Shown here: one piece after another, positions 1-39,998 of the stretch | Numbering within the stretch: the stretch's first letter is position 1 | Layout of the letters: each line of letters begins with the position of its first letter | Source of the DNA: Vulcanimicrobiota bacterium | GTDB lineage: Bacteria > Vulcanimicrobiota > Vulcanimicrobiia > Eremiobacterales > Eremiobacteraceae | Reading direction: 5' to 3' | DNA length: 64,000 nucleotides | Assembly: GCA_963805945.1 (NCBI GenBank) | Contig: CAWDVP010000008.1 | Span: forward strand, 1 to 64,000 | Notes under the pieces: model-generated | What the model saw: the letters and a program-made list of their open reading frames with translations, nothing else | Told to the model about the DNA's origin: nothing | The model's database searches: none | Translations under genes and position numbers: made by a program

Positions 1-1996
1 TGATCGAGCTGGCGAGATTCTGCTGCAGGTTGAAGTCCAGCGTGAGGTCGCTGTTGGGACTGAAGAGATGCTTGGCCTCGAAGTTATAGCTGGTGAGGCC
101 CGGCGTAGAGCGAACCCGCCGAAGGGGTTGTTGAAGCCGGTGGTCGCGGTCATGAAGTCGAAGCCGATACGAATTCGAACCCGAGACCTGCGTGAACATC
201 GCGTGGACCGCGCCGCCGCTCTCGCTCGGCCCGACGGTGGCGCCGAACACGGGGCCGTTCGTGGCGATGTGCGCGATGCTCGCGCGCAGGCGTGCGTCGT
301 CCCTTGCAAGCTCTGCTCGAAGAGCGTGAAGTTCGAGTCGCCTGAGGAATCGTTGACGTAGCCGAGGTTGAAACGCAGCGTCCCCGCGCGGTTGAGCAGC
401 AGGCTCGCGTGGCCGCCGGTCGTCTCGGCGTGCACGTTTGCGCCGCCGTACTCGTATTGCACCATGACGACCTGCGGGTTGAACCGATCGTCGTATGGCA
501 GCGGGATATTGATGAAGCGCATGAGGCCGGACGTGTAGTCGAGCGTGTAGTCGACGTTGCGCACGAGCGCATCTGGCTGAGCACCGCGCCGGTGCGCTTG
601 TCGAGCACGACCAGTGTGACGACGTCCGAGCCGACGACGATATCGGAATGCAGGATCTGACCCGCGATCGAGAGCCCGGTCGGGTTGAACTGCTGGCGCG
701 CGTACGGCGAAATCGTTGTTCGCGGTGAATCCCATGATGCGGGTCCGGCTCGTGCGTTCGAGCTTGGCGCCGTCGACGAGCAGATGGTAGCCGCCGTCGC
801 TGTCGGGCGAGCCATGGTCGGGCCGGAACTCGCCCCATACGAAGCTGCTCTGGTCGCGGTCGAGGCGCGCGTAGAGATGATCGCGCGAGAGCGCGTCGTC
901 GTACTGGTAGCTCGCGTCGCCGTAGGTCTGGAACGGACGGTCGTACGGGTCCTCGACATAGGGTCCGAGCAGGTTCTGCTGCAGCAGGTTCGCCGTGTCG
1001 TAGGCGACCGTCGCGAGGGTGTCGTTGTTGATGACGCCGGTGCCGAAGACGGCGATGCGTCCCTTGCGGGTCTGCTGGCCGTCGGGGACATCTGGCGGGC
1101 ATGCCGGCGAAACCGGGCACCGCGCCCGCGCCCGCGGTCCCCAGTCCGGTGACGAACGGCTTGCGCAGGTTCGGGTCGATATAGAAGCGCTCGATGTAGA
1201 CGACGTCGGCCGCCGTGACCTGCAGGACGGCCTCGCCGGGCAGCAGGCCCTGGACGAGATGGATCTGATTGAGACCGCCCGCCGCCACCGGCAGTTCCAC
1301 CGCCGACGAGGTGTGGTATTGCACCGGCTGGCCTTGCGACGTCGCGCTCGCGAGAAGAAAGCGCAGATCGCCCGCGACGACGCTCACCTTGATGATCGGC
1401 CCCGGGCATCGCCGGATTGTTCCAGCGGTCCGTCGCGGTGACGCTCAGCGTGTTCATCGTGACGCCGCCGTCCGCATGGAGTGGCCGGTCGAGATTAAAG
1501 ACGAAATGCGCCGGCTTGCCGGGGCCGAAGATCGTGTAGCGCGCCGTCAGGTCCGCGGATATCACCGTGCACCGAGCGGCGTGACCTCGACCGTGTTGGG
1601 ACCCGCGTCGAGCACGACGCCGTAGTACTCATAACGGGTCTCGCCGGTCTTCTTGTTCACCGAGCGCATGCCGATCTGTTTCGCCGAGATGACCTTGCCG
1701 TTGACGCGCAGCTCGACGCCCGCGCCGGAGACCGTCGAGACGAGGATCTTCGTGGCGATGCCGGTCGAGGCGGCGCCTGCGGCCGGCGAGAGCAGCGTCG
1801 CGCTCAGGTTCGAGGTCGCGCTATAGGTGAGGCTGCTCAGGTCGGCGCCGATCGGCGGCGCGGCGGTCGGCTGCGCGGTGGCCGGAGGCGCGCGGCCTGC
1901 GGCGCGGCAAGCGCCGGTGCGCCGAACAGCAGCGCTGCCAGCAACGCGACGACGTATGCGAGCGGTCGAATTCATTCGACCGACGCGCGCGCTCAC
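1..1996 (-). CDS. Large outer-membrane protein of DUF11 clusters (putative beta-barrel/usher-like); runs off the window's left edge; several frameshifts
   Basis: Pieces stitched across frames. GTG start overlaps the upstream stop. Signal-like 'YVVALLAALLFGAPALAA'. Ig-like 'VELRVNGKVI...YEYYGVVLDAGPNTVEV'. Then 'DPYDRPFQTYGDASYQYDDALSRDHLYARLDRDQSSFVWGEF' and 'NVDYTLDYTSGLMRF...VVMVQYEY', motifs I recall from large OM proteins next to TIGR01451 genes. Confidence 0.7.
1959..1982 (+). repeat. REP family B (24 nt) inside the 5' end of the OM protein gene
   Basis: CGAG-CGGTCGAA-TTCA-TTCGACCG; translated GRMNSTA. Confidence 0.8.
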
Positions 1997-4149
1997 TTCG
2001 ACGGCTCCAGCGCGAAGTTGATATCCTGCAGCAAGCCGGTGTCCAGCACGCCGTGGATCAGGCGCAGCATGCTGTGCGGGCTGTCGTAGTTGAGCGGGTT
2101 CGGATAGGGCTGCACGCCGGCGGGCAGCGTCGTCGTGTCGAGCCTGATGACGTGCATGCCCGGCCGCGCCGATGGGAACGAATACCGCCCGTAGCTATCG
2201 GTGATGACGTATTGTCCGTCTTCCAGATAGAGACGGACGCCCGAGACGCCCTTGTCGCCCGGCACGAAGAGCCCGCTGCCGGAGAAGTCGACGAACACGC
2301 GCCCCGTGATCGGGATGGTGAACGAGAACGCGCCACCGCCCAAGATCGCGAACGACGCCTGCGCCTGCGCGCTCAGCGGAGCGCCCTGCGCGTACGCGGT
2401 GAGCGCCGCGACGTTGACTTGTGTCGTGTTGATCTGCGCTTCCGGCAGCACGACCGCGGCGTACACTATCGTGTGGGTGACGCCCGGCGGCAAGGTGCCG
2501 AACGTCCAGGTGAGCGTGCGCCCGTTCACCTGCGGCTCGACCGCCACGCCGTCGACACGCGCCGTGCCGGGTCCGTACGCGACGCCCGGCGGCAGCGTGT
2601 CCACGAGCACCGCGTTGGTGAGCGTCGCGAGCGACGAATTGGTGAACGCGACCGCGAAGACGAGCCGGTCGCCGGTCTGCACCGCCTCGCGATCCACCAC
2701 CTTGGAGATGGTGATCGGGTTGGCGGTGAACATCGGGATGTTGTCGAGCAGGTTGAAGACGTTGGAAAGCGTGACGGGTCCGGCCGTCAGCGTGAAGCCG
2801 CCTGGCGCCGCGAGCAGCTCACCGTCGAGCGCGGTCAAGGTCGCGCTGTAGAGGGTGCCGCTCGGATCCGCCTTGAGCACGATGTCGATGCGGCGGTTGT
2901 TGTAGCTGGGCGCGGTGACCGTGAGGATGTAATGCGCGTTGCCGCCCGCGCCGCCGAATTGGCCAGGCCCGAAAGCGAACGAGAACAGCCCCGACGCCAA
3001 TGTGGTGTACGGGTTGACGTTGGAGTTGTTCGGCGCCACGCCGACGCCGGTGAGGCTGAACGGCGTGATGCTGGGCGGCTGCGTCAGCGTCATGACGGCG
3101 CCGCCGATGGTGTGCGTGCCGCCGCCGTAGCCGTCGAAGACGACGTTGCCCGTGCCGACGAAGACGCTCGCCGGCGACGAGGTGTACGGGCCGAGACCGG
3201 TCGCGGTCACGGTCGCCGTGTTCACGTATGTCGTGCCGAGCGTCGCGTTCGCGTCGACGACAGCATCAAAGGTGATGGTGATCGTCTGCAGGGCGTTGAC
3301 GGTCGGGATCGTCACCGTGAGCGTCTGTCCGACGAGCGTCGCCTGGCCGCCGGCCGGCACGCCGTTGATGAGCACGGATGCAAGCGAAGGATGCAGTCCG
3401 GTCGGCACGACGTCGGTGATGACGACGTTGTTGGCCGCCAGCCCGCCCGAATTGGTGAACGCGATCGAGAAGTTGACGGTGCCGTTCGGCGCGGCTTGCG
3501 TCGACGGCTCGTTGTTCACCAGCTTCTTGATCGAGCTGATGTTCGGGCCGATCACCGCGAGCGCCCAGCGCTGCCCGGTGTCCGATTGCAGCCCGTTGGC
3601 GGTGCCCGTCACCGTCGTCTGCGCTTTGATATTGATGGACCACGCCGTGCCGACGGTGATGGCCGCGGTGTTCACCGTGACGTCCACGAACATCGTGCCG
3701 CCCGGCACCACGCTCGGAGAGACGGTGGAACCGATCGTCACGGGGATGGGCGGGCCGGCCGGCGGCACGACGAAGTTGATCGCGGTGATCGTGCCCGCGC
3801 TCGTCGTGGCCGACTGGATCGTGTATGCGTCGGTGAGGTTGCTCGTGTTGGTGATGATGAAGCGCCGCGTCACCGGCGTGCCGACCGCGTACGAATCGAG
3901 CGCCGGATTCACCGCCGCCTCTTTGGGCGCGACCGTCAGCGACGCGACCGCCTGCACCTGCACGAGCACCGTGTTGGAGTCGGTGGCGTAGGTGGTGCCG
4001 GCGCCGTCCGCGTAGGTCGCGGACGCCGTGTTGCTGATGATCGTGCCGGCGGGCGTCGCGGCAAGGGTAGCGGCAAGCGCCGGCTGGGCCGCCAAAGCGA
4101 CCAAGCCGACGCTGGCCGCCGCCAACGCCGCGATGAACCAACGGAGCAC
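1993..4149 (-). CDS. Secreted DUF11 (TIGR01451) repeat protein with C-terminal SdrD-B-like domain, 718 aa
   Basis: Intact ORF with signal peptide. N-terminal TPAGTIISNTASATY. Two complete DUF11 domains (IKK..ITDVVP..VNTATV; ISK..LVDTLP..VNVAAL). C-terminal GRVFVDFSGSG..GDKGVSGVRLYLEDG..ITDSYGRYSF. Confidence 0.85.
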   Translation of the reverse strand: MLRWFIAALAAASVGLVALAAQPALAATLAATPAGTIISNTASATYADGAGTTYATDSNTVLVQVQAVASLTVAPKEAAVNPALDSYAVGTPVTRRFIITNTSNLTDAYTIQSATTSAGTITAINFVVPPAGPPIPVTIGSTVSPSVVPGGTMFVDVTVNTAAITVGTAWSINIKAQTTVTGTANGLQSDTGQRWALAVIGPNISSIKKLVNNEPSTQAAPNGTVNFSIAFTNSGGLAANNVVITDVVPTGLHPSLASVLINGVPAGGQATLVGQTLTVTIPTVNALQTITITFDAVVDANATLGTTYVNTATVTATGLGPYTSSPASVFVGTGNVVFDGYGGGTHTIGGAVMTLTQPPSITPFSLTGVGVAPNNSNVNPYTTLASGLFSFAFGPGQFGGAGGNAHYILTVTAPSYNNRRIDIVLKADPSGTLYSATLTALDGELLAAPGGFTLTAGPVTLSNVFNLLDNIPMFTANPITISKVVDREAVQTGDRLVFAVAFTNSSLATLTNAVLVDTLPPGVAYGPGTARVDGVAVEPQVNGRTLTWTFGTLPPGVTHTIVYAAVVLPEAQINTTQVNVAALTAYAQGAPLSAQAQASFAILGGGAFSFTIPITGRVFVDFSGSGLFVPGDKGVSGVRLYLEDGQYVITDSYGRYSFPSARPGMHVIRLDTTTLPAGVQPYPNPLNYDSPHSMLRLIHGVLDTGLLQDINFALEPSK

Positions 4150-4174
4150 CGTCAGGCTCCCCTCACCTTCCTCG

Positions 4175-6484
4175 TTACTTCACAGTAACGGCGAAGGTGA
4201 TGACTCCCTGATTCGTGCCGGCGACGCCGCTCGGCACGAGTTGGAACGCCGCGCCGCCGACCGTCGCGGTGAAGCTCGTCGAAGCCGCCGCGTTGCCGGT
4301 GTACGTGGTGCCGCCGGTGGTGTCGGTCGCCGGCGCGTTCAGTCCGTTGGTGAAGGTGGCCCAGTTGTTCGCGCCCGCCGCGCCGTTCTCGGTGATGACG
4401 AGCGTTCCCGCCGCCGTCAGGAGCTGCGCAGAGAGCGGTTCCGTGCCGGTGCCGCCTCCGACCATGATGTTCCGGTAGTCGACCGTGTAGGTGAGGATCG
4501 CACCCGGGCATGCGAACTGAGTCGCCGGCAACGGCGGCTGCGTGAACACACCGCAGGTGTTGTTGGTGATGGTGATGCCCTTGGTGAGGGCGATGAAGCT
4601 CGAGTAGAGCTCGTTGTGCGTCGTGTTCGTGCACGTCGGGCACGCGCCGCCGCCGATGCTCGCCGCGAGGATGTTGCCGTCGTAGCGTTTCAGCGACTGC
4701 GTCGGATTCGGCGAACTGTACACCGCCCAGTAGCACAGCGTCGCGCCGGATGTTACCGCGACGTTGTTGGCGACCGAAGTGGCGCCCGACCCTGCTCCGC
4801 CCAAGGCGGTGCCGCTCGGCGCGGTGCACGTGCCGCTGTCCTGGAACAGCTGGACGGTGAACCCGACCGGTGCGGTCGCGGTGATGGTGTACGTGTCGGC
4901 GACGTTGCCCGCGTTCATCACCTGGTTCGGCACGTTGATGCCGGACACGACGGCGGTGAAGTTGTTGCCGTTCGGCGTGCCCGGCACCGTGCCGCTGTTG
5001 ATGATGGTGAAGGCGGACTGCGTGAAGCTCACCGCGGTGAAGTCGTTGTTGTTATTCACCGCGACGACGCCGTCGTAGCTGCCGGTCGCGCCCGGCAGGC
5101 CCTTCGGCCCGTTGAGCACGGAGTAGTTCGACGGCATCGCCGAGCAGACGCTCTGCGAGGCGCCGCTGGGCGCGGCCAGCGTCGTCGAGTTGTTGATGGC
5201 GTTGTTGATCGCGGTGACCGCGGCAGGCGTGCCGTCGCTGATCAGCGTCACGATCGTCGGACCGATGACCTGCGGCTGCGTCACGAGGTAGTTGGCGTTG
5301 CCGCCGATCACCCCGTTGGCGATGTTGCTGATCGCGCAGGCGTTGCCTGAGCCCGCACCCGTCGGGCCGTTGACCGCGAAGGTCAACGTCACCGCTGCGG
5401 CAGGCACGTTACCCGCGGACGACCCGGCGTGCGCGTTGAGCGCCACCGCACCGCCCGAGATGTAGACGCCGATCCACAGCGCGCCGGCCGAACTCGTCGA
5501 CCAGCCGCTGGCGCCGCTTGCCACGTTCGAGTACACGATCGTGGCGCTCGCGGTGACCGGGAAGCCGTTCGCGGCGCTCGTCGCCACCGACGGCACGCCG
5601 TTGAGCGTGAGCGGCACCGCGGCGAACGTCGGGATCTTGTCGGCGATGAGCACGCCGGGGCTCGTGAAGGGCGCGCCTGCGCCAAGACCCTGCACGCTCG
5701 TGAGCATGCGGGCCGGCGAAGCGCCGCCGTTGTTACCGGCGACCGTATAGGTCACGACCGGCGCCGCCGACGTGCCGCTGACCACCGCTGACTTCTGCAG
5801 GTCGAGCCGCGCGTCGGCGATGATCGAGTCGGTGTAGCTGTTGGAGACGTTCGGCGAGGTCGTGTCGACCAATCCGGCCGGGTTCGGCTGATCGGCGGCC
5901 TTGTAGAGGATGTTGGCGGTGAGCGTCGTCGTGATCGTGCCTGGCGTCGCCGCACCGGTGATGCAGTAGTTGATGGTGATGGTCGCATAGCCCGCCGGCG
6001 CGATGAGCGCCGAGGCCGCGAGATTCGCCTGCAGCTGCGCGAACGTCAAACCGCTCGTCGTCGCGCCGCCGTTGTACGAGATCGAGTAACTCGTGGTGGC
6101 GACGCTGGCGGAGTCACTCCCGCCGAATACCGGTGCGCTCGGCAATTGGAAGCGTCCAAGGCCGTTGCCGGTATTGGTGAGCGTGTAGACGTCAGCGAGG
6201 CACGAGTTCGGCACGCCCGTGCCGGTGCCGGCCGCCGCGCCGTTATTCGTGGTCACGGTGAGCGAGGGCGCGTTCTGCACCTCGACGACGACCGTGTTGG
6301 ATTGCGTCGTATAGCTGACGCCGTTGGTGTCGGTATAGGTCGCCGACGCGGTGTTCGAGATCAGCGTGCCGGCGGCTGTCGCGGCGGCTGCGGGATGGCC
6401 CGTCAGCACGATCGCGCAACAGACGAACGCCGCGGCAAGCAACTCCGCCGGGCGGATGACGTACGTGAACCAAGATCGGTTCAT
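4175..6484 (-). CDS. Secreted DUF11/Ig-like repeat protein, putative major fibre subunit (start 6484 or 6517)
   Basis: Intact ORF with AAGGA SD before ATG 6484 and a signal peptide. N-terminal TAAGTLISNTASATY. Internal DUF11 (LQK..IADKIP..ISNIA). C-terminal truncated DUF11 ending ITFAVTVK. Confidence 0.85.
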   Translation of the reverse strand: MNRSWFTYVIRPAELLAAAFVCCAIVLTGHPAAAATAAGTLISNTASATYTDTNGVSYTTQSNTVVVEVQNAPSLTVTTNNGAAAGTGTGVPNSCLADVYTLTNTGNGLGRFQLPSAPVFGGSDSASVATTSYSISYNGGATTSGLTFAQLQANLAASALIAPAGYATITINYCITGAATPGTITTTLTANILYKAADQPNPAGLVDTTSPNVSNSYTDSIIADARLDLQKSAVVSGTSAAPVVTYTVAGNNGGASPARMLTSVQGLGAGAPFTSPGVLIADKIPTFAAVPLTLNGVPSVATSAANGFPVTASATIVYSNVASGASGWSTSSAGALWIGVYISGGAVALNAHAGSSAGNVPAAAVTLTFAVNGPTGAGSGNACAISNIANGVIGGNANYLVTQPQVIGPTIVTLISDGTPAAVTAINNAINNSTTLAAPSGASQSVCSAMPSNYSVLNGPKGLPGATGSYDGVVAVNNNNDFTAVSFTQSAFTIINSGTVPGTPNGNNFTAVVSGINVPNQVMNAGNVADTYTITATAPVGFTVQLFQDSGTCTAPSGTALGGAGSGATSVANNVAVTSGATLCYWAVYSSPNPTQSLKRYDGNILAASIGGGACPTCTNTTHNELYSSFIALTKGITITNNTCGVFTQPPLPATQFACPGAILTYTVDYRNIMVGGGTGTEPLSAQLLTAAGTLVITENGAAGANNWATFTNGLNAPATDTTGGTTYTGNAAASTSFTATVGGAAFQLVPSGVAGTNQGVITFAVTVK

Positions 6485-6513
6485 TGTGATGTTCCTTATC
6501 CTTTCGCGTGCGA

Positions 6514-7005
6514 TCATTTCACCCGGACCTCATAAAGAAACCGGACGCTCCCCTTCGGCGCCAACGGCTTTTCGGCGATCCACCGGATGTTGGTATATGA
6601 AGACGGGTCCGCTGGTTTCGTCACCGGGCCCGTCGAGGTCTGAACCGTCACCACGGGTTTGGACGACCACGTCTTGCCGCCGTCCAGCGAGAACTCCACG
6701 TTCCCTGCCGTGGTGCTTGCCGACCCCGCGATATACGCGGTGCCTGCGGGTATCTTATCCGACGGCGTGAAGTGCAGCGCCGGATCGGAACCTTTGTTGG
6801 TGCCGACGATCGTCCAGCGGACGACTTCGCCGGCCTTGAGCTTGACTGCGGGATCCAGCGGGATGAGCTTCTCGCCACCCCCGCTGACCTTGACGACCGT
6901 CACCCCGCTGAGATGGAGGCTGACATCCGGTTTCGCATATGCGGTCAGCGTGGTCAGTATCAGTGCCGCTGCGCAGGCGAATATCCCGGCGCTCACTAGG
7001 CGCAT
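6514..7005 (-). CDS. Small secreted single-DUF11-domain protein, about 163 aa
   Basis: AAGGA SD before ATG 7005. Signal peptide MRLVSAGIFACAAALILTTLTAYA. AGEVVRWTIVGTNKG..SDKIPAGTAYIAGSA..EFSLDGGKTW..TNIRW..LAPKGSVRFLYEVRVK. Confidence 0.85.
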   Translation of the reverse strand: MRLVSAGIFACAAALILTTLTAYAKPDVSLHLSGVTVVKVSGGGEKLIPLDPAVKLKAGEVVRWTIVGTNKGSDPALHFTPSDKIPAGTAYIAGSASTTAGNVEFSLDGGKTWSSKPVVTVQTSTGPVTKPADPSSYTNIRWIAEKPLAPKGSVRFLYEVRVK

Positions 7006-7180
7006 AGAAATTTCCTTCTTCTTATTAAGCAGGCCACCGAGGTGGCCTAGAAGTGTGACTCGGGCGGCTCCCGTTTTGTAAGCCCTGCCCCTTGTATTCA
7101 TATCGTCAAAAGTATGACCGCCAGCACGGCGAACTGCGATGTTTGTTGGCTTTACGCGACTTTTGTGGACATGGTCCGCT

Positions 7181-7205
7181 AGGGTCCCTGGGGACGCCGT
7201 CAGAA
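7181..7205 (+). promoter_or_regulatory. Candidate alternative-sigma promoter AGGG-N18-GAA upstream of thrS
   Basis: The same bipartite motif recurs upstream of purM, pepA, purB, the 43538/43633 divergent pair and the ABC operon. Confidence 0.4.
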
Positions 7206-7218
7206 GGCGGGGACGGAT

Positions 7219-8958
7219 ATGGAAAATTCCAGCCCCAAAGGTGACCTCGGTCACATGCGCCATACGGCCGCTCACCTGCTCGCCCATGCGGTGGTCGATC
7301 TCTATGGCGATGACGTGAAGCTGGCGATAGGTCCCGCCATCGAGAACGGCTTCTACTACGATTTCTCAAGGGCACGCCGTTCGTGCCTGAGGATCTGCCG
7401 CGCATCGAAACACGGATGCGCGAGCTCATCAAAGCGGATGTCGCGATGACCGGCCGCCCGATCACCAGGCCCGAAGCGGAGGCCTACTACCGAAAACGCG
7501 AGCAGCCGTTCAAACTCGATATCCTCGCCGGCATTCCCGAGGGCGAACCGCTCTCGATGTACACGATCGGCGATTTCACCGACCTCTGCCGCGGCGGGCA
7601 TCTGGAGCGCAGCGGCGAGATCGGCGCGATCAAGCTGTTGTCGATCGCAGGCGCCTATTGGCGCGGCGACGAGCACAATCCGATGCTGCAGCGCATCTAC
7701 GGCACGGCGTTCCCGTCGCAGGCAGAGCTCGACGAGCATCTTGCGCAGCTCGAAGAGGCGGAGCGAGCGCGATCACCGCCGCCTCGGCAAGGAGCTCGAG
7801 CTCTTCTCCATCGAGGAAGAGGCTGGCCCCGGTCTCATCTTCTGGCATCCCGCGGGCGGGCGCGTGCGCGAGGTCATCGAGGACTTCATCCAAGGCGAGC
7901 TGCGACGAGCGCGGCTACGAGCCGGTGTACACGCCGCACGTGGTGCACGAGGGTCTGTACGAGACCTCGGGCCATCTGCAGTCCTTCGTCGAGAAATGTT
8001 CGGGCCGCTCGAGCTCGACGAGCAGCGCTATCGCGTCAAGCCGATGAACTGCCCCGGGCACATCCTCATCTACAAGTCGCGCCCGCGCTCGTATCGCGAC
8101 CTGCCGCTGCGGCTGGCCGAATTCGGCACCGTATATCGCTACGAGCGCTCCGGCACGCTGCACGGACTGCTGCGCGTCCGCATGATCACGATGGACGACG
8201 CGCATCTCTTCTGCACCCCCGACCAACTGCAAGAGGAGTTCGAGAACACGGTCGACGCGGCGCTGACGGTCCTCAAGGCATTCCGCTTCGACGACTACAA
8301 GATGTTCGTCTCCACCAAGCCCGCGAACGCGCTCGGTGATGACGCCTTGTGGGAACGCGCGACAAAGGCGATCATCGCCGCCTGCGATCACGCCGGTCTG
8401 AAGTACGAGATGGATGAGGGCGGCGGCGCCTTCTACGGCCCGAAGCTCGACATCAAGGTCCGTGACGCCATCGGCCGCGAGTGGCAGCTGTCGACGGTGC
8501 AGGTCGACTTCAACCTGCCCGAGCGCTTCGGGCTCACCTATCGCGGCGCGGACGGCGCGGAGCACCGCCCGGTGATGATCCATCGCGCGCTGTGCGGCTC
8601 GCTCGAGCGCTTCTTCGGCGTGCTCATCGAGCACTACGCCGGCGCGTTCCCCGCGTGGCTCGCGCCGGTGCAAGCGGTGCTCGTGCCCATCTCCGAGGAC
8701 CAGCTCGCGTACGCGGACTCGGTCGCGGCCTCGCTGCGTTCGGCAGGCTTCCGCATCGAGGTGGACACCTCGAACGAACGACTTCAGAAGAAGATCCGCA
8801 ATCAGCAGATGCGCAAGGTGCCCTACATGCTCGTGGTCGGCAAGAGCGAAGTGGCTGATGCCAAGGTCAACGTCCGTTCACGCTCTGGTGAACAGGAGAC
8901 CATGACGGCGGAGGCGTTCGCGGTCAAGCTCGCTGAGGAAGTCCGCACCAAATCCTAG
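7219..8958 (+). CDS. thrS: Threonine--tRNA ligase (short form lacking N-terminal TGS domain); several apparent frameshifts
   Basis: [82 protein letters not shown] and PVMIHRA are spread over three frames. Confidence 0.96.
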
Positions 8959-8987: not shown

Positions 8988-11900
8988 CTATTGCACCGTC
9001 ACCGTCAGGAACACGGTGCCCGACGCACCCGGGTTGAGCAAGCCGGTGAACGTCCAAGTGACGATCCCGCCGGACGGCCCCGATGGGGTGCAGGCCGTCA
9101 ACGCCGCGCCCAGCGGTCCGCAAGTGGCGCTCACAAACGTGGTGTTGGGCGGCACCGGATCCGTCACCGCGAAGTTCGTCTCCGGGAACACGCTGGTGTT
9201 GGTATAGGTGATCGTGTAGAGCAGCGTATCCCCAGGGCTTGCGCTGCCGGTGGTCGCGTTCGAGCTGCCGGTGGTCACGTTGCGCACGACCTTGGCCAGC
9301 GACATCGAGACATGGCCGATGGTGATCTTCGCGGACGCCGGCAAGAGATTGGTCAGCCCGCCCGGCGTGACGATGGCGCCGGCAGGTATCGTGTTGGTGA
9401 AGGTACCGAACTGCGTCGGCGTCGCGGTCGTGATGTACACGTAGACGACGCACGAGGCGCTCGCAGGAATCGTGAAGCTCGTGACGTTGAACGACGCGCC
9501 GCCCGGCACGCCGACGATCGTCGCGCCGCAGCCCGGCGGCGCGCCGCCCTGCGGCGGCGGTTGCGTGGTGATGTCCTTGATGACGATGGCGCTCGGCAGC
9601 GTGTCGGTCACCGTCGTGATGGGCTGCGCGACGGCGGACGGATTCTGGAAGGTGAGCGCGACCCAGGTCGTGCCGCTGGGCGGAATCGCCGGCGCTAAGA
9701 ACGCTTTCGTCAGGCCGATGTTCGCCGACGACGTGAGCGTCGCGCTTGCGCTGAACGAGTTCGTCGCGCCCGAGGTCGCGGTGATCGATCCGGCTGGGAT
9801 GGTGTTGGTCAGATTTCCCTCGGTGACCGCGGTGACGTCCACGGCGATCGTGCATGGCTGCAGCGCTCCGCCTGCAGTACGCGAGGGCAACGTGGCGCCG
9901 CTCAGGACCACCTGACCGCTGCCTGCGGTTGCGACCAGCGTTGCGTTCGCGCAGGTCGTGCTGGCGTTGGGGATCGCGGCGACGGTCATGCCGGCTGGCA
10001 ACGTATCGGTGAGCCCCACACCCGTCTCGTTGAAGACGATGCCGCCGGTATAGGCTTGCGCGTTGTTCGAGAGCGTGATCAGCAGATGCGAGGTGCCGGC
10101 GGCGGGGATGGTGTTGGGCGTGAAGGTTTTGTTGACGTTGATCTGCGACGGCGCCACGAACACGACGTTGTTCGCGCCGTTCAACGTCTGGAGATTGTCC
10201 TCGGTGCTCTGGACGGTCATATGGCCGGCGGTGTAGGTGCCGGCGACCGCCGAGATCACGAAGTACGAGATCGTGCACGTGTCTTTGAAGACGAAGTCGG
10301 GCGACGTCGCGGTGTAGGACGTGCCGCCCGCCCCAGGCGTGAACGTGAGCACAGAGCCTTTCGTGCACGTATAGGTGAACTGCGGCGCGGCGGCCAGGAC
10401 CACATTCGTGCCCGCTACGTTGAAGTTGAAGACCGCGACGAGGTTGTGGTCGTCCGTGCCGGCCGTCGATATGATCCGGTCGCTCACCGAGATCGTGCCC
10501 TTGATCGGCGCGACGCCGACCGTGGTCGCGCCGCTGCTCGAGAAGTAGTGGGTGAGGGTCAGCCCGTGGTTGACGGTGAGATTGGCGTTGACGTTGGCGG
10601 CGTTGGTGATGGTCACATTGGCCGAGGTGACCACGGAAAAGCCGCCCGGCGGGATGCTGTTCGTGAGCGTCACCGGTAATGGCGCCGCGACGGTCGGCGT
10701 CACAGGCACGCTGACCGTGCAGGTCCTGGCTCCCGCGGCGATGGTCCCATTCGTCACTGCGATCGACGTGCCGCCGATCGGCGCGATGATCGTCGGTGCG
10801 CCGCAATTGGCGTTCGCCGTCACCGCGGCGGCGACGATCAGACCCGCGGGCAGGTTGTCGGTGATGGTGACGGCGTGCAGCGCCAGTCCGCCCGTCGGAT
10901 TGATGACGTTGATGTTGAGCGTCGAATTGTTGGCGCGCGCCACGCTGGCCGGGCTGAACGCTTTGGTGAACGTCACGGTCGGCGTCGGCGTCGGTCCGAC
11001 GGTGAGCACCGCAGAGGTGTTGCTGTTCGCTTTGAGCCCCTGGTCGTTGGTCACCGTGCTGCCGGTGACGGTGTTCGTCGGCGTCTGCGACGGCGGTGCG
11101 GCAGGCACGAGCACGTCGAACGTGATCTTGCAAGTTGCGCCGTTCACTCCCAAGCTCGGCGCCGCCGGCAAGGTGAGGCCGGAGACGACGACGGTTGACG
11201 TGCCGGCGATCGTGCCCGCCGGTCCGCCGCAGGAGTTGGCGAAGTTCGGGACCGCTGCGAGCAAGAGACCGCCCGGCAACACGTCTGAGAAGCCGAAGTT
11301 GGTCAGGGGGATGAGGTCGCGGTTGATCGCCGAGATGGTGATGGTCACCGTCGCGCCGGGGACCGTCGTCGCCGGCGTGAAGCTCTTGACGATCGTCGGC
11401 GTGATCGGGAAGTAGGTCACGTCGGCGGTGGTGCCCGCGTTGTTCATCACGCCTTGCGCGCTGGTGATCGCCTGCGAGGCCACGGTGAGCCGCTGGCTGC
11501 GCTGTGAATTCGAGAACTGGCCGTTGACGCTCACCGTCACCTGCACCGTGCAGGAGCCATTGGCCGCGATGGTCGCTCCGGTGACGCTGAACGTCGGCGG
11601 GGATACCGCGTTGTTGAAGGTCGCGACGCCGCCGCAGGAATCGGTGACGCTGACGATGTGGAGCGTCGCGCCGCCGACCGGCGACGAGAGCGAACCGGGG
11701 ATGGTGACGTTGGTGATCGGCAGCGCGTTCGGATTGGTCACCGTGACGATGAAGACCGGTGATGCGGTCTCCGGCACCTGGTTTGGCGTGACGGTGATCG
11801 TGACGCCGAGGTTCCCCGGGTTGGTGACTTGGAGCGTCGCGGAGGCGGGCGATGAGTTCGTGCCGGCACTGGTGACGAGCGCGCCTGCCGGAATCGTGTT

Positions 11901-12302
11901 GGTGAAGTTCTGCGCCGAGTTGCCGAACACCGAGACGGTCACCGTGCACGCGCCTGGTGTGAACGCGTCCGGCGCCTGCGGGATGACGCCGCCGTTCAGC
12001 GTGATGCTGTTGGCGGTGGTGTTCACCACGCCCCCGGCGCACGTGGTCGTCGGCGTCACCGTTCCGTCGACCGTGAGGCCGGCAGGCAAGTTGTCCGTCA
12101 TGCTCGTGACGGTGACGCTCGTCGTCGTGTCGTTGTTGAGCAGCGTGATGGTGAGCGTCGAATCGGCGGCGAAATTGACGTTCGACGGATTGAATGCCTT
12201 GTTGATGCCGATCGTTCCGGCGGAACCCGCCGGCGACCACACGAACAGCGCCACCAGTACAGCCAGGGCGCAGCCCAGCGCCACGCGCGAGATCGCACGC
12301 AT
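8988..12302 (-). CDS. Large secreted Ig-like repeat adhesin (7 repeats plus C-terminal truncated DUF11 domain)
   Basis: Intact ORF with signal peptide from ATG 12302. Repeats of K-x-F-x-P..TD-x-LP..C..C..TNTIP. Ends SLAK..PGDTLLYTITYTN..VTDPVP..LNPGASGTVFLTVTVQ. Confidence 0.85.
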   Translation of the reverse strand: MRAISRVALGCALAVLVALFVWSPAGSAGTIGINKAFNPSNVNFAADSTLTITLLNNDTTTSVTVTSMTDNLPAGLTVDGTVTPTTTCAGGVVNTTANSITLNGGVIPQAPDAFTPGACTVTVSVFGNSAQNFTNTIPAGALVTSAGTNSSPASATLQVTNPGNLGVTITVTPNQVPETASPVFIVTVTNPNALPITNVTIPGSLSSPVGGATLHIVSVTDSCGGVATFNNAVSPPTFSVTGATIAANGSCTVQVTVSVNGQFSNSQRSQRLTVASQAITSAQGVMNNAGTTADVTYFPITPTIVKSFTPATTVPGATVTITISAINRDLIPLTNFGFSDVLPGGLLLAAVPNFANSCGGPAGTIAGTSTVVVSGLTLPAAPSLGVNGATCKITFDVLVPAAPPSQTPTNTVTGSTVTNDQGLKANSNTSAVLTVGPTPTPTVTFTKAFSPASVARANNSTLNINVINPTGGLALHAVTITDNLPAGLIVAAAVTANANCGAPTIIAPIGGTSIAVTNGTIAAGARTCTVSVPVTPTVAAPLPVTLTNSIPPGGFSVVTSANVTITNAANVNANLTVNHGLTLTHYFSSSGATTVGVAPIKGTISVSDRIISTAGTDDHNLVAVFNFNVAGTNVVLAAAPQFTYTCTKGSVLTFTPGAGGTSYTATSPDFVFKDTCTISYFVISAVAGTYTAGHMTVQSTEDNLQTLNGANNVVFVAPSQINVNKTFTPNTIPAAGTSHLLITLSNNAQAYTGGIVFNETGVGLTDTLPAGMTVAAIPNASTTCANATLVATAGSGQVVLSGATLPSRTAGGALQPCTIAVDVTAVTEGNLTNTIPAGSITATSGATNSFSASATLTSSANIGLTKAFLAPAIPPSGTTWVALTFQNPSAVAQPITTVTDTLPSAIVIKDITTQPPPQGGAPPGCGATIVGVPGGASFNVTSFTIPASASCVVYVYITTATPTQFGTFTNTIPAGAIVTPGGLTNLLPASAKITIGHVSMSLAKVVRNVTTGSSNATTGSASPGDTLLYTITYTNTSVFPETNFAVTDPVPPNTTFVSATCGPLGAALTACTPSGPSGGIVTWTFTGLLNPGASGTVFLTVTVQ

Positions 12303-20993: not shown

Positions 20994-23900
20994 ATGGGTT
21001 CTCACCGGTTGGGTAAGGGCGCGGTCTTCGCGAGCGCAATCCTCGCGGCGGCCGCGCTGCTCTTCTCCGCCATCCCGGCCTCGGCCGACGACACCGGCAA
21101 CATCATCATCACGGTGACGGATGCCGCGACGCATGCGCCGCTCGGACTCGCCCGCGTGCTGCTCGACGGCCCCGTCATCACCAACGAGCTGTCCGGCCAG
21201 GACGGCAAGGTCTCGTTCACCGACGTGCCGAGCGGCATCTACCGAGCGCGCGTGGGCAAAAACGGCTATAGCCAGGTGACGTCCGCGCAGTTCGAGGTGC
21301 TCGAGGGGCGGCAGGTGACGGTGACGGTCGAACTCGTCAAGCCCGCGGTCAAGACCATCGGCAGCATCACTGTGCGCTCTTCGGCGACCATCAGCGAGAG
21401 CAGCGTCAACGACAGCACCGCTGTCCGCAAGCTCTCGGACACGCTCGCCGACGCGCTCGGAAAGCTCTCCGGCGTCAGCGTCGCCACCGACCCGAGCGGC
21501 TCGAGCGACAGCCAGGTGACGATCTCGCTCGAGGGCCACGATCCCTCGCAGACGAGCCTCACGCTCGACGGCGTGCCGCTCAACGCGCCGGGAGTGGCCG
21601 GCGATCTCCAGTCCATCAACACCGATCTCTTCAGCGCGGGCTCCGCCAACTTCGGGCCTAACGCGGGCTCGCTCGGCGGCTCCGTCAATTTCACCTCGAT
21701 CCAGCCCACGCTGAGCTGGCAAGGCAAGTTCACCACCTCCGTCGGTTCGTTCGGCAAAGCGGCGACGATCGTGTCCGCGTCCGGCACCGCCGGAGCGGTG
21801 GGCATCGCCTTCACGCACTCGATCCGCGGCGGCGACAACCCGATCACCGGCCTGGAATACCTCGACACGAGCGGTTTGGACTACATCCATAACGGCGCCG
21901 CGCAATCCGGCGGCGACCTCTTCAAGATCCGCACGCCCCTCGGCGCCGATCAGACGCTTTCGGCGACGTACGTCTCGACCAACAACTACAACAACCTGGT
22001 GTGCACGCTGTTCACGGGCCCGCTGCCCTGCGGCTACGGTCCCGGTAACTACAGCGATCGGCATTACTCCCTCGCGACGCTCACCGACACGGCGCTCGCC
22101 GGCATGGTCGCGCTGCAGTTCTCGCTCTTCGGCGGCACGTCGACCTTCAATCGCGACCTGCTCGACCGTTACGTCGCAGGCATCCCCGCACCGTTCGGCA
22201 CGGTGAGCGACAGCCGGACGAGCGGGGCGTCGCTGAACGCGACCCTACCGTCGCGCGAGCGTCACACCATCTCGTTCCAGGCGACGACGACCGATGCCAA
22301 GCTCACGACGATCGGGGTGATCTCGACGAGCTCGCCGTTCTCGAACTCGTCGAGCACGTCGAACTACAGCACGATCTCGATGAGCGACAAGATCCATTCG
22401 AGCAGCACGCTGACGCTCGGCGCCCGCCTCGGTATGAGCTTCTCGCCGCAGACCTCGAACTCGGTGATCGGCGGCGCGAGCGCCGTCTACACTCCGACCG
22501 CGTGGGATTCCGTGACCGGCAGCGTCGATATCGGCGGCGCCGGGGTGGGTCTCTCGCGCATCTTCCCGCTCAGCGATCCCGCGTCGCTGCGCTTCGACTG
22601 CAACGCCGGCAACGGCTACGGCGCGGGGCCGGGCGACTCGCCGGGGCCGACGAGTTCGACCTCGGAGCGGCTGACGTGGCAGCACCGCTTCAAGACGGGT
22701 CAGTTCTCGGCACAGCTCTACAGCCAAGTGCAGAACGACGTGCTGCTAAACACCTACGTCAACGGCTCGGTGCTGCCGCCGGGCTACTTGCCGCCCGGCT
22801 ATCTCGCCGCCGCGCAGCTCGTCTATCAGTCCAGCGGCGGCTGCGGCACCGCGCTGCCGTTCGGGCCGACGAATCTCTACATCAATCAGCCGGTGGCGAA
22901 CGTGCAGCGGCTCTACCAAGGCCTGCAGTTGACGGGCGGTTTCCGCGTCGGCAACGGCTTGGCGGTCGAACCGTACTACGACATCCAGAAAGCCGTCGCC
23001 AACACGAGCGACCCGCGGCTGACCGATCCATATTCGTTCGTGATCTCCGGCGCGCAGAGCGCGGGCGTGCCGCTTCAGCGCGGCGGCCTGACGCTCGACT
23101 ACAAGGCGCCGCACTCGGCGATCGAGTGGCTCGCCAACGGGACCTACGTCTCGGGTAACAACGCGCAGAATCTGCCCGGATATGTCACCGCCGACGCGGG
23201 CGTCGCGATCAACTTCAACAAGGGCACGCTGACCCTGGCGGGGACGAATCTGTTCAACAAGTACGGCTACTACTTCGCCTCGCCGGCCAATGCCGTGCCG
23301 CAGGAGACGGTAGGCGGCGAGCTGGTGCCAACGGTGGCGCGCCCGCTGTCACCGCGACAATACTCAGTCACGTACACCGTGAGGTTCGGCAACGTGCGGC
23401 AGAGCAGCTACACGCCGCCGCTGCTCGCCGATGCCGGCGCAGGGCCGAGCGGAACGCGCGGAGGCGGCGGACCGAATGGGGTTCCGGGCGGCGGGTTCGC
23501 GGCGCTACCGCCTTTGGCGAATACACCGCCGGAGCATCCACTGGATCCGGACACCACGCGCCAAGCCTGCACCGCCGACGCGGCGAAAAGCGTGAAGCCT
23601 TTCCTCGAACAGGTCAAGGCATACGTCGCGGCCGTCGAGGCCGCCAAGGGCGCGGATGGCTACCCTGCGTCTGCTCCCGCCAACGCGCCGGCGGTCGACG
23701 GCGTCAACATCGCCTACCATAAGACGCCGACGTCGTTCGCGCTCGTCTTCACGCCGACGAAGGCGGGTTCGCTCCGCAACTTCCTCGCCTGCGTGTCGCT
23801 GCACCTCGGCACGGCGGACGAGGCGAAGGCGCTCGGCCTGTACGTCCCGCCGACGAGCGCGTTCAGCCGCTTGCCGCTCGTCTACTCGCCGGAAGGCGGG

Positions 23901-24350
23901 CTCTACGTGGTGCGGCAGCCGCAGGTGGCGGGCAGAGAGCAGTTCCGGCTCTACAAACTGCCGACGACGCCGCCAGCGCAGCCGTTTGCGTTGGCATCAG
24001 GCACGTCGTGCACCGATGAGCTGAAACCGGCCGCGCAGACGCTGCTCGGCGCGTTGCAGACGTACTTCACCGGCTTCGATCCGGCGAGCCCGCCTGCGGC
24101 GCCGCCGGCCGGCTGGACCGTCACGACGCACAAGACCGCTGCCGGATACTGGAGCGAGTTGCAGCTCGACGACATCTCGCGCATCCCAGCCGTGCTGAAC
24201 TGCGGTCATGTCGCGACCGGCACGCCGGACGAGGTCAAGGCCGCCAAGCTCGACGGCGCGCGGCCGCCGACGCTGAACTACAGCCCGAAGTTCGGGATCT
24301 ATCTCATCCGACCGGCGGACCAGGGCACGGGCACCCCGCGACCGCAATAG
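20994..24350 (+). CDS. TonB-dependent-receptor-like outer membrane protein with N-terminal carboxypeptidase-regulatory-like domain and ~320-aa C-terminal extension
   Basis: Signal peptide. DGKVSFTDVPSGIYRARVGKNGY. Plug-like TLADALGKLSGV..ISLEG..TSLTLDGVPLN..GSLGGSVNF. Barrel end LPGYVTADAG..TNLFNK..PRQYSVTYTVRFG. Confidence 0.8.
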   Translation: MGSHRLGKGAVFASAILAAAALLFSAIPASADDTGNIIITVTDAATHAPLGLARVLLDGPVITNELSGQDGKVSFTDVPSGIYRARVGKNGYSQVTSAQFEVLEGRQVTVTVELVKPAVKTIGSITVRSSATISESSVNDSTAVRKLSDTLADALGKLSGVSVATDPSGSSDSQVTISLEGHDPSQTSLTLDGVPLNAPGVAGDLQSINTDLFSAGSANFGPNAGSLGGSVNFTSIQPTLSWQGKFTTSVGSFGKAATIVSASGTAGAVGIAFTHSIRGGDNPITGLEYLDTSGLDYIHNGAAQSGGDLFKIRTPLGADQTLSATYVSTNNYNNLVCTLFTGPLPCGYGPGNYSDRHYSLATLTDTALAGMVALQFSLFGGTSTFNRDLLDRYVAGIPAPFGTVSDSRTSGASLNATLPSRERHTISFQATTTDAKLTTIGVISTSSPFSNSSSTSNYSTISMSDKIHSSSTLTLGARLGMSFSPQTSNSVIGGASAVYTPTAWDSVTGSVDIGGAGVGLSRIFPLSDPASLRFDCNAGNGYGAGPGDSPGPTSSTSERLTWQHRFKTGQFSAQLYSQVQNDVLLNTYVNGSVLPPGYLPPGYLAAAQLVYQSSGGCGTALPFGPTNLYINQPVANVQRLYQGLQLTGGFRVGNGLAVEPYYDIQKAVANTSDPRLTDPYSFVISGAQSAGVPLQRGGLTLDYKAPHSAIEWLANGTYVSGNNAQNLPGYVTADAGVAINFNKGTLTLAGTNLFNKYGYYFASPANAVPQETVGGELVPTVARPLSPRQYSVTYTVRFGNVRQSSYTPPLLADAGAGPSGTRGGGGPNGVPGGGFAALPPLANTPPEHPLDPDTTRQACTADAAKSVKPFLEQVKAYVAAVEAAKGADGYPASAPANAPAVDGVNIAYHKTPTSFALVFTPTKAGSLRNFLACVSLHLGTADEAKALGLYVPPTSAFSRLPLVYSPEGGLYVVRQPQVAGREQFRLYKLPTTPPAQPFALASGTSCTDELKPAAQTLLGALQTYFTGFDPASPPAAPPAGWTVTTHKTAAGYWSELQLDDISRIPAVLNCGHVATGTPDEVKAAKLDGARPPTLNYSPKFGIYLIRPADQGTGTPRPQ

Positions 24351-38604: not shown

Positions 38605-39998
38605 GCGTTGCTTTCTCCATCGCGCGGACTTTCGCCGCGAAGAGGTGTGCGCGCTCGGCGGCGAGGCCGACGTGCGCCGCGGGTTCTAGGAGTGCTTTCA
38701 TCTCCGCCGGTTTGAGGTGGACGGTGAACGCCTCATCCTTTGACAGCATCTCCGGCAGCGGGTTTTTCTCGTCCTTCTCTATCGCTTCCCAGGCCTTCAT
38801 CGAGGCTTCCCGCAGCTTCTCGTGCAGCGCCTGCCGGTCGGCGCCGCGCCGCGCCGCCGCCATGAGCACCGCCTCGGTCGCGGCGAACGGGCCGAAGGTG
38901 GCGAGGTTCGCGGCGATCCGATTCTTGTCGACCCGTAGGCCGCTCATCACCTTGCTCGCCAGCGAGACGATCTCGTCGGCGGCCAAAAAGCTCTCCGCCA
39001 GCACGAAGCGGCGGTTCGCGGAATCGTCGAGCGTGCGTTCGAGCAGGTTGTCCGCGGCGTTCTGCCACGTCACCATCGCGTTGGCGGCGATCGGGCCGCG
39101 CGAGCGAGCAGATGCGCTCGCACATGATGGGATTGCGCTTGAACGGCATCGCCGACGAGCCGACCTGTTTGGCCTCGAAGGGCTCGCCTACTTCGCCGAA
39201 CGGGCTGCTCGCCAGCACGCGCACGTCGAAGGCGAATTTGCTCGCGGTCGCGGCGAGCGCGGCGACGTTGGCCACGACGATATAATCGAGGCGCCGCGAG
39301 TACGTCTGCCCTGTGATGAGCGACGCGGTCAGCCCGAACGCCGACATGACGTCGCGTTCGACCTGGTCGGGCGTGACGTCCGAGCCCTTGAGCAGCGCCG
39401 CGTACGACGCAGAAGTGCCCACCGCGCCGCGCAGCCCTTTGCTCGGCAGCCACGCGGCGAGGCATTTCAGATTCTCGTAGTCGAGATAGAGATCGTGCGC
39501 CCACAGGCTCATGCGATAGCCGAGCGTCGTGGGCTCGGCCGCCTGCAGATGCGTGTACGCCATGCACGGCAGGTCGGCGTATTTCTCGATCTGCCCGGCG
39601 AAGACATCGAGCAGCGAGCGCAGCCCGTCGCTGAGCATCGAAAGCGCCTGCTTCAGGCGCGCGGTCTCGACGTTGTCCTCGACGTCCATGGAGGTCGCGC
39701 CGAGGTGCAGCTTGCCGCCGCCGAGCTTGGCCTGCCTCGCGTAGACGCGCAGTTCGGCCATGAGGTCGTGATGGATCTCTTTTTCGATCTCGTGGGCTGC
39801 CGCCAGATCCACCGCGTCCACGTGGCGGCGCAGGTCCGCCAGCTCTTCCTCGGTGACCAGGCCCGCCTTGGCCTGCGCGGTCGCCAGCTCGAGCCAGAGC
39901 CGGCGCCACATGCGGCGTTTGGTCTCCTCGGAGAACAGTTCGCGCATAGCGGGACGGCCGTATCGCCAGGAAAACGGTGAGGAATACGCTGTTGTCAC
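38597..39998 (-). CDS. purB: Adenylosuccinate lyase; frameshift near 39095
   Basis: YSSPFSWRYG, HDLMAE, LHLGATSMDVEDN, THLQAAEPTT, GSSAMPFKRNP, LERTLDDSANRR. Confidence 0.95.

Follow-up and report, generated by a model that had tools for sequence, protein, structure and literature searches.

A putative shaft subunit of an Eremiobacterota surface fibre with a candidate split DUF11/CLIPPER domain

Results

The P0001 Gene and Its Layout

The stretch of DNA analysed in this work (the window) comprises 64,000 nucleotides with a G+C content of 63–70%, at the start of contig CAWDVP010000008.1 from a Vulcanimicrobiota (Eremiobacterota) bacterium (assembly GCA_963805945.1). On its minus strand, positions 4175–6517 encode P0001, a putative shaft subunit of a surface fibre. 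The protein begins, after its signal peptide, with a short hairpin, called here the tag, and ends with a truncated domain, called the catcher. The comparisons described below suggest that the two are halves of one isopeptide-forming DUF11/CLIPPER domain, which would be completed between neighbouring subunits. The proteins encoded in the window are designated P0001 to P0004, and related loci bear numbers preceded by L.

The open reading frame (ORF), taken from the ORF list and its translation, counts 780 amino acids (aa) from Met1 at position 6517, or 769 aa from Met12 at position 6484. The second start is the likelier one, because the motif AAGGA, which resembles a ribosome-binding site, is located 8 nucleotides upstream and because the first ATG overlaps the stop codon of the preceding gene. 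P0001 figures with 769 aa in the public collection, and a homologue of 769 aa shares 96% identity with it. The alignment with homologues extends from end to end, and a contig of a related strain spans positions 4708–6267 of the gene with no gap. Residues are numbered here from Met1, and 11 must be subtracted for the start at 6484. A scan of positions 1800–7600 for promoters and terminators gave nothing exceeding the shuffled controls.

Signal peptides were taken from the translations, the position of the cleavage site being a reading and not the output of a prediction tool. In P0001 a Sec-type signal peptide with the hydrophobic core LLAAAFVCCAIVL and an Ala-rich cleavage region occupies positions 6377–6484 (minus strand, as for all the features of this gene). 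The tag starts approximately 5–10 residues past the likely cleavage site. It corresponds on the alignment to a two-strand N-terminal hairpin of residues 48–82 (6272–6376), with N55 at 6353–6355, D63 at 6329–6331, S73, and N74 at 6296–6298. Domain D1 (residues 83–235, 5813–6271), delimited by alignment and profiles, is devoid of an isopeptide Lys and comes after the hairpin in the split forms as well as in the fused forms presented below. The internal domain (residues 236–425, 5243–5812) was assigned on the alignment and contains K242 (5792–5794), D293 (5639–5641) and N398 (5324–5326). Residues 426–635 (4613–5242), lying between assigned domains, make up an unassigned stalk region of one or two domains. 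The catcher (residues 636–780, 4178–4612) is a DUF11-type body defined from alignments and profiles, with K646 at 4580–4582, E710 at 4388–4390 and two conserved Cys. In a complete domain the Asn hairpin would follow at the point where the catcher stops, and the C-terminus reads ...GVITFAVTVK. No NCBIfam match was obtained for P0001. Neither D1 nor residues 426–635 gave a Pfam match, or a DUF11-type match in profile–profile comparison, and a self-comparison of the P0001 domains returned collinear, insignificant matches.

Conservation of the Candidate Reactive Residues

The candidate reactive residues were followed in an alignment (A1) of 90 homologues, 34–96% identical to P0001, originating from metagenome-assembled genomes (MAGs) of Eremiobacterota. 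The tag residues N55, D63, S73 and N74 were invariant (90/90). At the other end of the protein, K646 was kept in 86 of the 90 homologues, and position 710 was acidic in 89 of them (58 Glu and 31 Asp). A second alignment gathered 93 C-terminal catcher domains from related loci, 61 belonging to shaft proteins and 32 to proteins possessing a catcher only. The Lys was present in 59/61 shaft catchers and in 32/32 catcher-only proteins, the acid in 60/61 and 32/32, respectively. The Asn-strand motif [ILVM]xN[TSIV]A was absent from the last 45 residues of all 93 domains. The equivalents of N55, S73 and N74 were also invariant across 119 tags of both classes, the P0001-type and the P0002-type, and the tag Asn was found in 65 of the 66 tag-only proteins. 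The position of the two elements was constant: in a set of 244 proteins, 183 of 185 tag matches started within the first 80 residues, and 196 of 201 catcher matches ended 0–5 residues from the C-terminus, the distance being 15 residues at most.

In the internal domain, the triad was conserved at K242 (83/90), D293 (87/90) and N398 (80/90, with an Asp in nine more). The spacing from Lys to Asn is 156 residues, 51 from Lys to Asp and 105 from Asp to Asn. In the CnaA-like DUF7925 (PF25546), Table 1 of PMC12617251 gives a Lys-to-Asn spacing of 151, approximately 62 + 89. The internal domain had no direct Pfam match, and in the Atlas clusters nearest to it (0.97), PF25546 was present in 58–99% of the members. 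These sequence comparisons make it a probable intramolecular isopeptide domain, self-contained in the manner of DUF7925.

These residues had been pointed out in an original prediction, made from the DNA letters of the window. It placed a donor Asn in ISNTAS (6353–6355) near the mature N-terminus, a Lys in ALTK (4580–4582) and an acid in VITEN (4388–4390) within a C-terminal domain lacking the Asn strand, and a full triad (LQK, ADKIP, ISNIA) in the internal domain. The codons were all confirmed by translation, and the conservation reported above, together with the absence of the Asn-strand motif from the catchers, agreed with the prediction on each point.

Tag and Catcher as Probable Halves of One Domain

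A profile search of 1.84 billion representatives with the P0001 family returned 2,438 proteins at E ≤ 0.001. Fused relatives were present among the matches, namely P0230 (1,977 aa), its cluster mate P0246 (2,646 aa) and P0162 (1,872 aa, from an Acidoferrales MAG), in which a unit made of a complete DUF11 domain and a following D1-like domain is repeated in tandem. In these adhesins the hairpin comes directly after a body of the type ..LALTKTDNGPW...ITVTDTLP.... When a profile of the tag plus D1 (residues 46–235) was searched against P0230, five of the seven stretches began at profile position 2–3 (independent E-values, i-E, from 6e-16 to 3e-18), at the hairpin ..GT.SISNTASV... The same profile included the hairpin in one of six stretches of P0162, the others beginning within D1. 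In the adhesin of locus L081, described below, it matched residues 574–737 (i-E 6.5e-19), starting from AISNTAH. Pfam DUF11 covers body and hairpin together in P0162 (residues 461–568, model positions 3–98), with Asn562 inside. Ten fused repeats could be aligned, and showed the Lys in eight, the Asp in ten and the Asn in ten. For the intact domain, crystal structure 9IFR possesses an intramolecular isopeptide bond with the triad Lys715-Asp748-Asn806 (PMC12617251). Since the hairpin closes the DUF11 domain in the fused relatives, the N-terminus of P0001 does not, on the evidence of these profiles, belong to D1, but is a homologue of the two closing strands of a DUF11/CLIPPER domain.

The catcher was compared with the C-terminal domain of P0004, a catcher-only stalk protein identified by Pfam and profile searches at positions 8988–12,302 of the window (minus strand). 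In P0004, Pfam DUF11 matches residues 1049–1136 of 1137, corresponding to model positions 8–84 of 114. The Asn strand of a complete DUF11 lies near model positions 90–97, and the P0004 match stops before it. The profile of the 93 catchers aligned with the P0004-type truncated DUF11 (hhalign 94.6%, E 6.5e-8), ALTK being placed on SLAK, and the alignments reached the last residue of both profiles in permissive as well as in global mode. K646 and E/D710 align with the Lys and the Asp of truncated and fused DUF11 domains, in keeping with the CLIPPER pattern of a Lys in the first strand and an acid in a central one. Judged from these alignments, the terminal domain of P0001 is a split form and not a canonical DUF11 member, because the Asn strand, penultimate in such a member, lies outside it, the homologue of this strand being at the N-terminus. 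P0001 does not reach the Pfam gathering score of the CLIPPER/DUF11 family (PF01345). No long protein with an internal shaft-type catcher (region 630–780) was found, which is weak evidence.

The fused proteins bear on a different explanation of the same two ends, namely that they are unrelated terminal signals which never meet. The hairpin would then be a part of the first domain or an export element, and the C-terminal domain would be a sorting domain for the outer-membrane protein encoded nearby. The strictly terminal positions are indeed typical of sorting signals, and the C-terminal domain is joined to varied N-terminal parts and has no direct family match in P0001. In the fused adhesins, however, the hairpin is internal and closes a DUF11 domain recognised by Pfam, so that its origin is not that of a terminal signal, and the catcher, which shows homology to DUF11 bodies, ends exactly before the Asn strand. 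Unrelated signals would also leave unexplained why Lys and acid are found on catchers only and Asn on tags only. We consider this explanation very unlikely.

Partner Proteins and the Cassette

The gene located after P0001 encodes P0002, a tag-only subunit of 718 aa (1993–4149, minus strand), identified by its tag and by Pfam and NCBIfam matches. It consists of a signal peptide, a tag at 3949–4053 (Asn40 at 4030–4032), two DUF11/isopeptide domains, both complete, and an SdrD_B-like domain at the C-terminus. Its tag matches that of P0001 with an E-value of 2.8e-17, and the catcher is absent. The tag hidden Markov model detected only P0001 and P0002 in this genome. P0004 shows the reverse situation: six matched DUF7933 stretches precede the C-terminal truncated DUF11 (8991–9314), with the catcher residues K1037 at 9291–9293 and D1081 at 9159–9161, and there is no tag. 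Its gene is syntenic in L001–L003. Signal peptides could be read in the translations of all the subunits.

On the other side, P0001 is preceded by a gene for a small protein, P0003 (6514–7005, minus strand; 163 aa from Met95 of the ORF), recognised by translation and profile. P0003 is composed of a signal peptide and one truncated DUF11 body, and its stop codon overlaps the first ATG of the P0001 ORF. In 76 of 80 loci a gene of this type lies directly before the one for the shaft protein. The family aligned with truncated DUF11 (hhalign 96.2%, E 2.6e-9) with coinciding ends. The Lys was present in none of 75 members and an Asp or Glu in 11 of 75. As a guess, P0003 could hold tags reversibly, whether to escort them or to act as a cap, or it could be a first subunit.

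A polymer held together without any covalent bond has to be envisaged here. The hairpin would complete the neighbouring domain by strand donation, and Lys, acid and Asn would take part in buried hydrogen bonds. The P0003 family, made of the same truncated body with Lys in 0/75 members, indicates that the system includes acceptors of this fold which act without a covalent bond, and two of the ten fused repeats were devoid of the Lys. According to the isopeptide survey, some DUF11 domains have no bond (PMC12617251), and chaperone-usher pili are described as stable without covalent links (PMC13721041). Opposed to this are the conservation of the triad at 96–100%, in two protein classes as regards the Asn and likewise in two as regards the Lys and the acid, a selection on all three residues which is hard to explain otherwise, and the bond seen by crystallography in the intact homologous domain (9IFR; PMC12617251). 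We regard a purely non-covalent polymer as unlikely.

The fourth component is a putative outer-membrane protein, the gene of which is recognised at positions 1–1996 (minus strand, 5' part) by homology to P0105, a protein of 1,064 aa from L002. In 68 of 80 loci the tag-only gene is followed by a gene for such a protein, of approximately 1,060 aa. P0105 had no Pfam, NCBIfam or PDB match, and a beta-barrel is a reading from sequence and from Atlas leads and not a result. In this family (L002 14,498–17,692, plus strand) a conserved strand-like motif, GDL(T/S)HLTFTAT, follows a Pro/Ala/Ser-rich linker of very variable length, and has a His where a tag would have the Asn. The idea that the N-terminus of the outer-membrane protein is a Lys-free tag was rejected for this lineage at the sequence level, because hhalign against the tag profiles gave E-values of 0.2 or worse. 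Vulcanimicrobium alpinus, a cultured species of the phylum, is described as having an ordinary Gram-negative envelope with an outer membrane (PMC9758169).

Over 80 loci, stop-to-stop ORFs were distributed into 68 with tag and catcher, 81 with a tag only and 41 with a catcher only, the last two counts including fragments of broken or cut genes. Both halves were carried by the P0001 class only. The cassette of small protein, shaft, tag-only subunit and membrane protein was complete in 65 of 80 loci, the remainder being cut by contig ends. An extra catcher-only gene was found in 37 of the 51 loci with at least 2.5 kilobases of downstream sequence. In many loci catcher-only genes come after the outer-membrane gene, and their products have varied N-terminal parts and a catcher end. 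The N-terminal parts of two of them, encoded in L040 (17,890–20,346, plus strand) and L052 (18,041–21,001, plus strand), are similar to the N-domain of AgmC, a gliding protein of Myxococcus (NF047640), with E-values of 6e-35 and 7e-21, below the model cut-off. Propeller-like N-terminal parts combined with a truncated DUF11 end were observed in other loci.

Catchers were present in 31 of 201 sampled genomes of the phylum, and tags in the same 31 plus one more. By family, catchers occurred in 3/15 and 27/113 genomes of two families and in 0/72 of 19 others. Exactly two tags were counted in 29 of the 31 catcher genomes. The genome of the window, 82% complete, contained no match to sortase (PF04203), usher (PF00577) or PapD-like chaperone (PF00345), and an Omp85 match just above the cut-off.

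Probable Closure between Molecules, Co-Variation and Fusions

Tag-only and catcher-only proteins are encoded in the same operons, and these orphan halves could therefore be completed only in trans. The original prediction had described P0001 as a putative shaft subunit containing a split isopeptide domain and had favoured closure between molecules. Its idea of a split domain is in line with the match of the tag to the Asn hairpin of fused DUF11 and of the catcher to truncated DUF11 from end to end. The shaft role is consistent with the restriction of both halves to the P0001 class. The intermolecular closure is supported by orphan tags which keep the Asn (65/66), by orphan catchers of the same operons which keep the Lys (32/32) and the acid (32/32), and by the coincidence of tag and catcher genomes.

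Similarity between tags was higher within loci. The tags of shaft and tag-only proteins of the same locus were 49.5% identical, compared with 45.6% across loci, and none of 5000 reshuffles reached the same-locus value, an excess that may be inflated by relatedness and by differences of rate between lineages. In the control D1 segment, the values were 24.0 within and 23.5 across loci, with 451 of 5000 reshuffles reaching the former. A likeness of the tags in the same locus without an excess in D1 fits with two tags that need the same catcher.

The same data bear on an alternative, namely that tag and catcher of one P0001 molecule pair with each other, so that the adhesin would be a covalently cyclised monomer. 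Both halves are in one chain, and the approximately 550 residues of domains between them might bend round. Tag-only and catcher-only proteins cannot self-close, yet they keep the reactive residues, and within a locus the tags of both classes vary together. Furthermore, body, hairpin and D1 are arranged in tandem series in the fused homologues, an order which suggests poles facing different neighbours. We consider self-closure very unlikely.

Two fusions are informative on the order of the subunits. In the metagenome locus L081 (2–6332, plus strand), a single adhesin of 1,145 aa adjoins a protein homologous to the outer-membrane protein (BLASTP E 1e-16, approximately 820 residues). The N-terminal part of this adhesin matches P0004 (E 9e-21), and its C-terminal part matches that of P0002 (E 6e-18). 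The middle contains a complete DUF11 domain (K479, D514, N577) and then two D1-like domains (i-E 6.5e-19 and 1.6e-21). This order, unsplit and in series, is the one predicted for P0004, P0001 and P0002. The spacing K479-D514-N577 resembles that of K715-D748-N806 in 9IFR (PMC12617251, Table 1).

In L082, from genome G100 of another family of the phylum, a protein of 1,823 aa (2068–7536, minus strand) associates a tag-bearing, P0002-like stalk with a whole outer-membrane protein. A signal peptide and a tag come first, followed by DUF11 (473–580) and SdrD_B (610–665), with BLASTP E-values of 3e-22 and 9e-8 to P0002, and residues 810–1785 match residues 56–1036 of P0105 (E 9e-24). The preceding gene ends in a truncated DUF11, the Pfam match covering residues 463–555 of 557 and model positions 15–84. 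The outer-membrane protein and the tag-bearing base are thus fused in G100, and are usually separate genes in Eremiobacterota. The L081 and L082 fusions therefore suggest that the tag-only subunit is at the outer membrane, and that the chain would grow away from it toward the catcher-only proteins.

State of the Assembly and Remainder of the Window

The outer-membrane protein gene at 1–1996 is cut by the contig start and is distributed over at least three frames, with approximately residues 30–647 of about 1,064 present. The only copy of thrS in the genome (7219–8955, plus strand) is split over three frames, with breaks near 7362–7374 and 7741–7766. In contigs of related soil strains, single-base insertions or deletions (indels) in thrS were seen at 7671/7674, 7766, 7908 and 7995. 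The frame breaks in thrS point to assembly indel errors rather than to a pseudogene, and such errors are the likely cause of the broken frames. Two soil-metagenome contig sets contained 5–6% of the sampled words; these correspond to strains related at 90–95% identity and not to this organism. No RNA data set was among the sequencing runs listed as carrying the sequence.

From 12,400 to 64,000 the window contains housekeeping genes, including tsaD, pyruvate kinase, purine and riboflavin synthesis, dapA and uvrD, as well as a branched-chain amino-acid ABC transporter and an aspartokinase-like gene. Some ORFs cover part of a family model (for example 38,600–39,076 and 54,337–54,879), which suggests frame errors. 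A gene resembling a TonB-type receptor is located at 20,994–24,347, and two pentapeptide-repeat genes at 44,485–47,154. The ribH ORF (47,563–48,063) matches DMRL synthase over 163 residues, the model having 139 positions.

Discussion

Proposed Organization of the Fibre

We propose, as the probable interpretation, that this diderm soil bacterium builds a surface fibre with P0001 as the repeating unit of the shaft, a fibre in which a DUF11/CLIPPER domain is split between subunits and covalently locked in a fixed order. After Sec export, the tag of one subunit would insert into the catcher of the subunit ahead, by a donor-strand complementation involving a hairpin. Lys646 would then attack the carboxamide of Asn55 with the assistance of Glu710, releasing ammonia and leaving an isopeptide bond. 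The catcher-only proteins with their varied N-terminal parts, in this genus P0004, would be distal or at the tip, and P0001 repeats would constitute the shaft. The tag-only P0002 would end the chain at the cell, with the outer-membrane protein of approximately 1,060 aa, as a base or terminator. In this scheme the order of the subunits would be set by which halves each protein owns. The formation of the Lys–Asn bond and the existence of long P0001 homopolymers are what we infer from the distribution of the residues.

A more extensive proposal may be made tentatively, and we judge it possible, at somewhat less than even likelihood. The system would represent a separate class of diderm pilus, derived from an adhesin cut inside its CLIPPER domain and self-ligating in order without chaperone, usher, sortase or ATP. 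The Lys-less P0003 would then be a reversible acceptor, a periplasmic escort of a new kind handing tags to a reactive catcher at the outer-membrane protein.

Several observations weigh against the shaft interpretation. P0001 as a whole, as well as its pieces 40–100, 234–437 and 630–780, had no Pfam match even at E-values up to 10, and PDB sequence and profile searches with the P0001 alignment (A1) and with A2 gave no meaningful match to a solved structure. The direct comparisons are weak: single catchers matched DUF7927 in 19/93 cases and DUF11 in 9/93, at E 0.002 or weaker (0.0066 or weaker for DUF11). The shaft tag and catcher aligned with complete domains collinearly, N on N and K on K, at E-values of 0.0001–0.09. 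These weak, collinear values include 0.013–0.092 for the tag against the hairpins of complete domains and 0.016 for the shaft catcher against fused DUF11 bodies. Among shaft catchers, 2/61 are without the Lys and 1/61 without the acid. Besides the possible inflation of the same-locus tag excess, the similarity between shaft and tip catchers of the same locus was marginal (0.329 versus 0.318, 87/5000). Mutual information with average product correction (APC; 199 sequences, effective number Neff 111) showed no specific signal between tag and catcher columns, positions 81–85 being dominant. That N55 would meet K646 and E710 is itself deduced from sequence. The proposal leaves P0003 and the route of the subunits across the outer membrane without explanation. 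Finally, the membrane protein gene is cut and frame-broken here, so that the assembly does not document a complete system for this organism.

Comparison with Known Systems

SpyTag/SpyCatcher is an engineered pair obtained by splitting a CnaB-type domain, in which an Asp on a single strand ligates spontaneously. P0001 would be a natural counterpart of the CnaA/DUF11 type, with the Asn on an N-terminal hairpin and an ordered polymerisation. The sortase pili of monoderms are built from isopeptide-stabilised Cna-type domains linked by a sortase at an LPXTG motif, whereas no sortase match was found here and the P0001 end, ...ITFAVTVK, is without a sorting motif. The type V pili of Bacteroidota are assembled from lipoprotein precursors by a protease-triggered strand exchange with a C-terminal donor strand. 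In contrast, no lipobox was seen by eye at the signal peptides of P0001 and P0002, and the donor is N-terminal.

The CLIPPER/DUF11 (PF01345) single-chain fibrillar adhesins are secreted stalks of diderms, with the same domain type and the same Lys, Asp/Glu and Asn logic. P0230, P0162 and the L081 protein are fused relatives of the present system among them. The difference is that the P0001 domain is cut before its last two strands, the halves being at opposite ends of separate polypeptides. As a consequence of the cut, the bond would link separate molecules and serve to build the fibre, not merely to stabilise a domain. The main text of PMC12617251 surveys intramolecular bonds, and the word "intermolecular" is used there five times, for ubiquitin, fibrin, sortase pili, phage capsids and thioesters.

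The proposed mechanism of P0001 most closely resembles that of BsaA, a TasA-family protein of Clostridium perfringens. As presented in the preprint, BsaA is assembled by "donor strand exchange and lock": Asn35 is carried on an N-terminal strand that inserts into the neighbouring subunit and is locked there by Lys74 and Glu56, and triad mutants lose the oligomers (bioRxiv 10.1101/2024.11.04.621531). The likeness would reside in the N-terminal donor Asn and in the Lys and Glu of the neighbour forming an autocatalytic triad; the corresponding residues are present and conserved in P0001. BsaA differs by its TasA-like fold, not CnaA/DUF11, by a single strand instead of a hairpin, and by its monoderm host, with SipW and a secretion linked to type IV pili; no set of tip, shaft and base subunits appears in the preprint text considered. 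No TasA-related family was present among the Pfam matches of the six ORFs scanned in the locus, which comprise all its genes and gene fragments, or of the L002 homologues, SipW not having been the object of a separate search.

In the chaperone-usher pili (type 1 and P), an incomplete Ig-like fold is completed by the N-terminal extension of the next subunit, and the adhesin is an acceptor only (PMC13721041; PMC12122975, in the sections considered). The architecture of the P0001 system fits this scheme, and shaft subunits that both give and accept, as well as a last subunit at an outer-membrane platform, would be common features, the order being predicted from sequence in the case of P0001. Here, in contrast, neither a PapD-like chaperone nor an usher was found in the genome, which is 82% complete; strand donation would involve a hairpin of two strands from a CnaA-like domain, and the link is probably covalent. 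The membrane protein, of approximately 1,060 aa, belongs to an unrelated family without Pfam or NCBIfam match. The threads of Sulfolobus acidocaldarius are filaments of a non-type-IV kind, which show donor-strand complementation and for which an intermolecular isopeptide bond has been proposed (PMC9715654). They are archaeal, have a different fold and no outer membrane, and no Lys/acid triad is described in the part of the article considered.

The literature covered contained no description of a split DUF11/CLIPPER domain, of a hairpin-tag pilus or of Eremiobacterota pili, subscription-only papers and the supplements of PMC12617251 being outside this scope. In the 300,000 characters covered of a 2026 review of bacterial surfaces, the word DUF11 was absent.

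Significance

If the proposal is true, it would represent a new principle of pilus assembly, in which donor-strand exchange is made irreversible by a split, autocatalytic isopeptide bond of the CnaA/DUF11 type. The exchange would occur at an outer-membrane protein dedicated to it, with no chaperone, usher or sortase involved. Many operons of "DUF11 repeat proteins" to which no function is assigned would thereby be explained, the family profile alone comprising 2,438 cluster representatives. The occurrence of both fused and split forms would show that single-chain adhesins and multi-subunit fibres can be converted into each other. For engineering, natural and co-evolved Tag/Catcher pairs of a new type would become available, together with chain starters and terminators. 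Lastly, Eremiobacterota are widespread in soil, and the system would offer a first access to the surface structures of this phylum.

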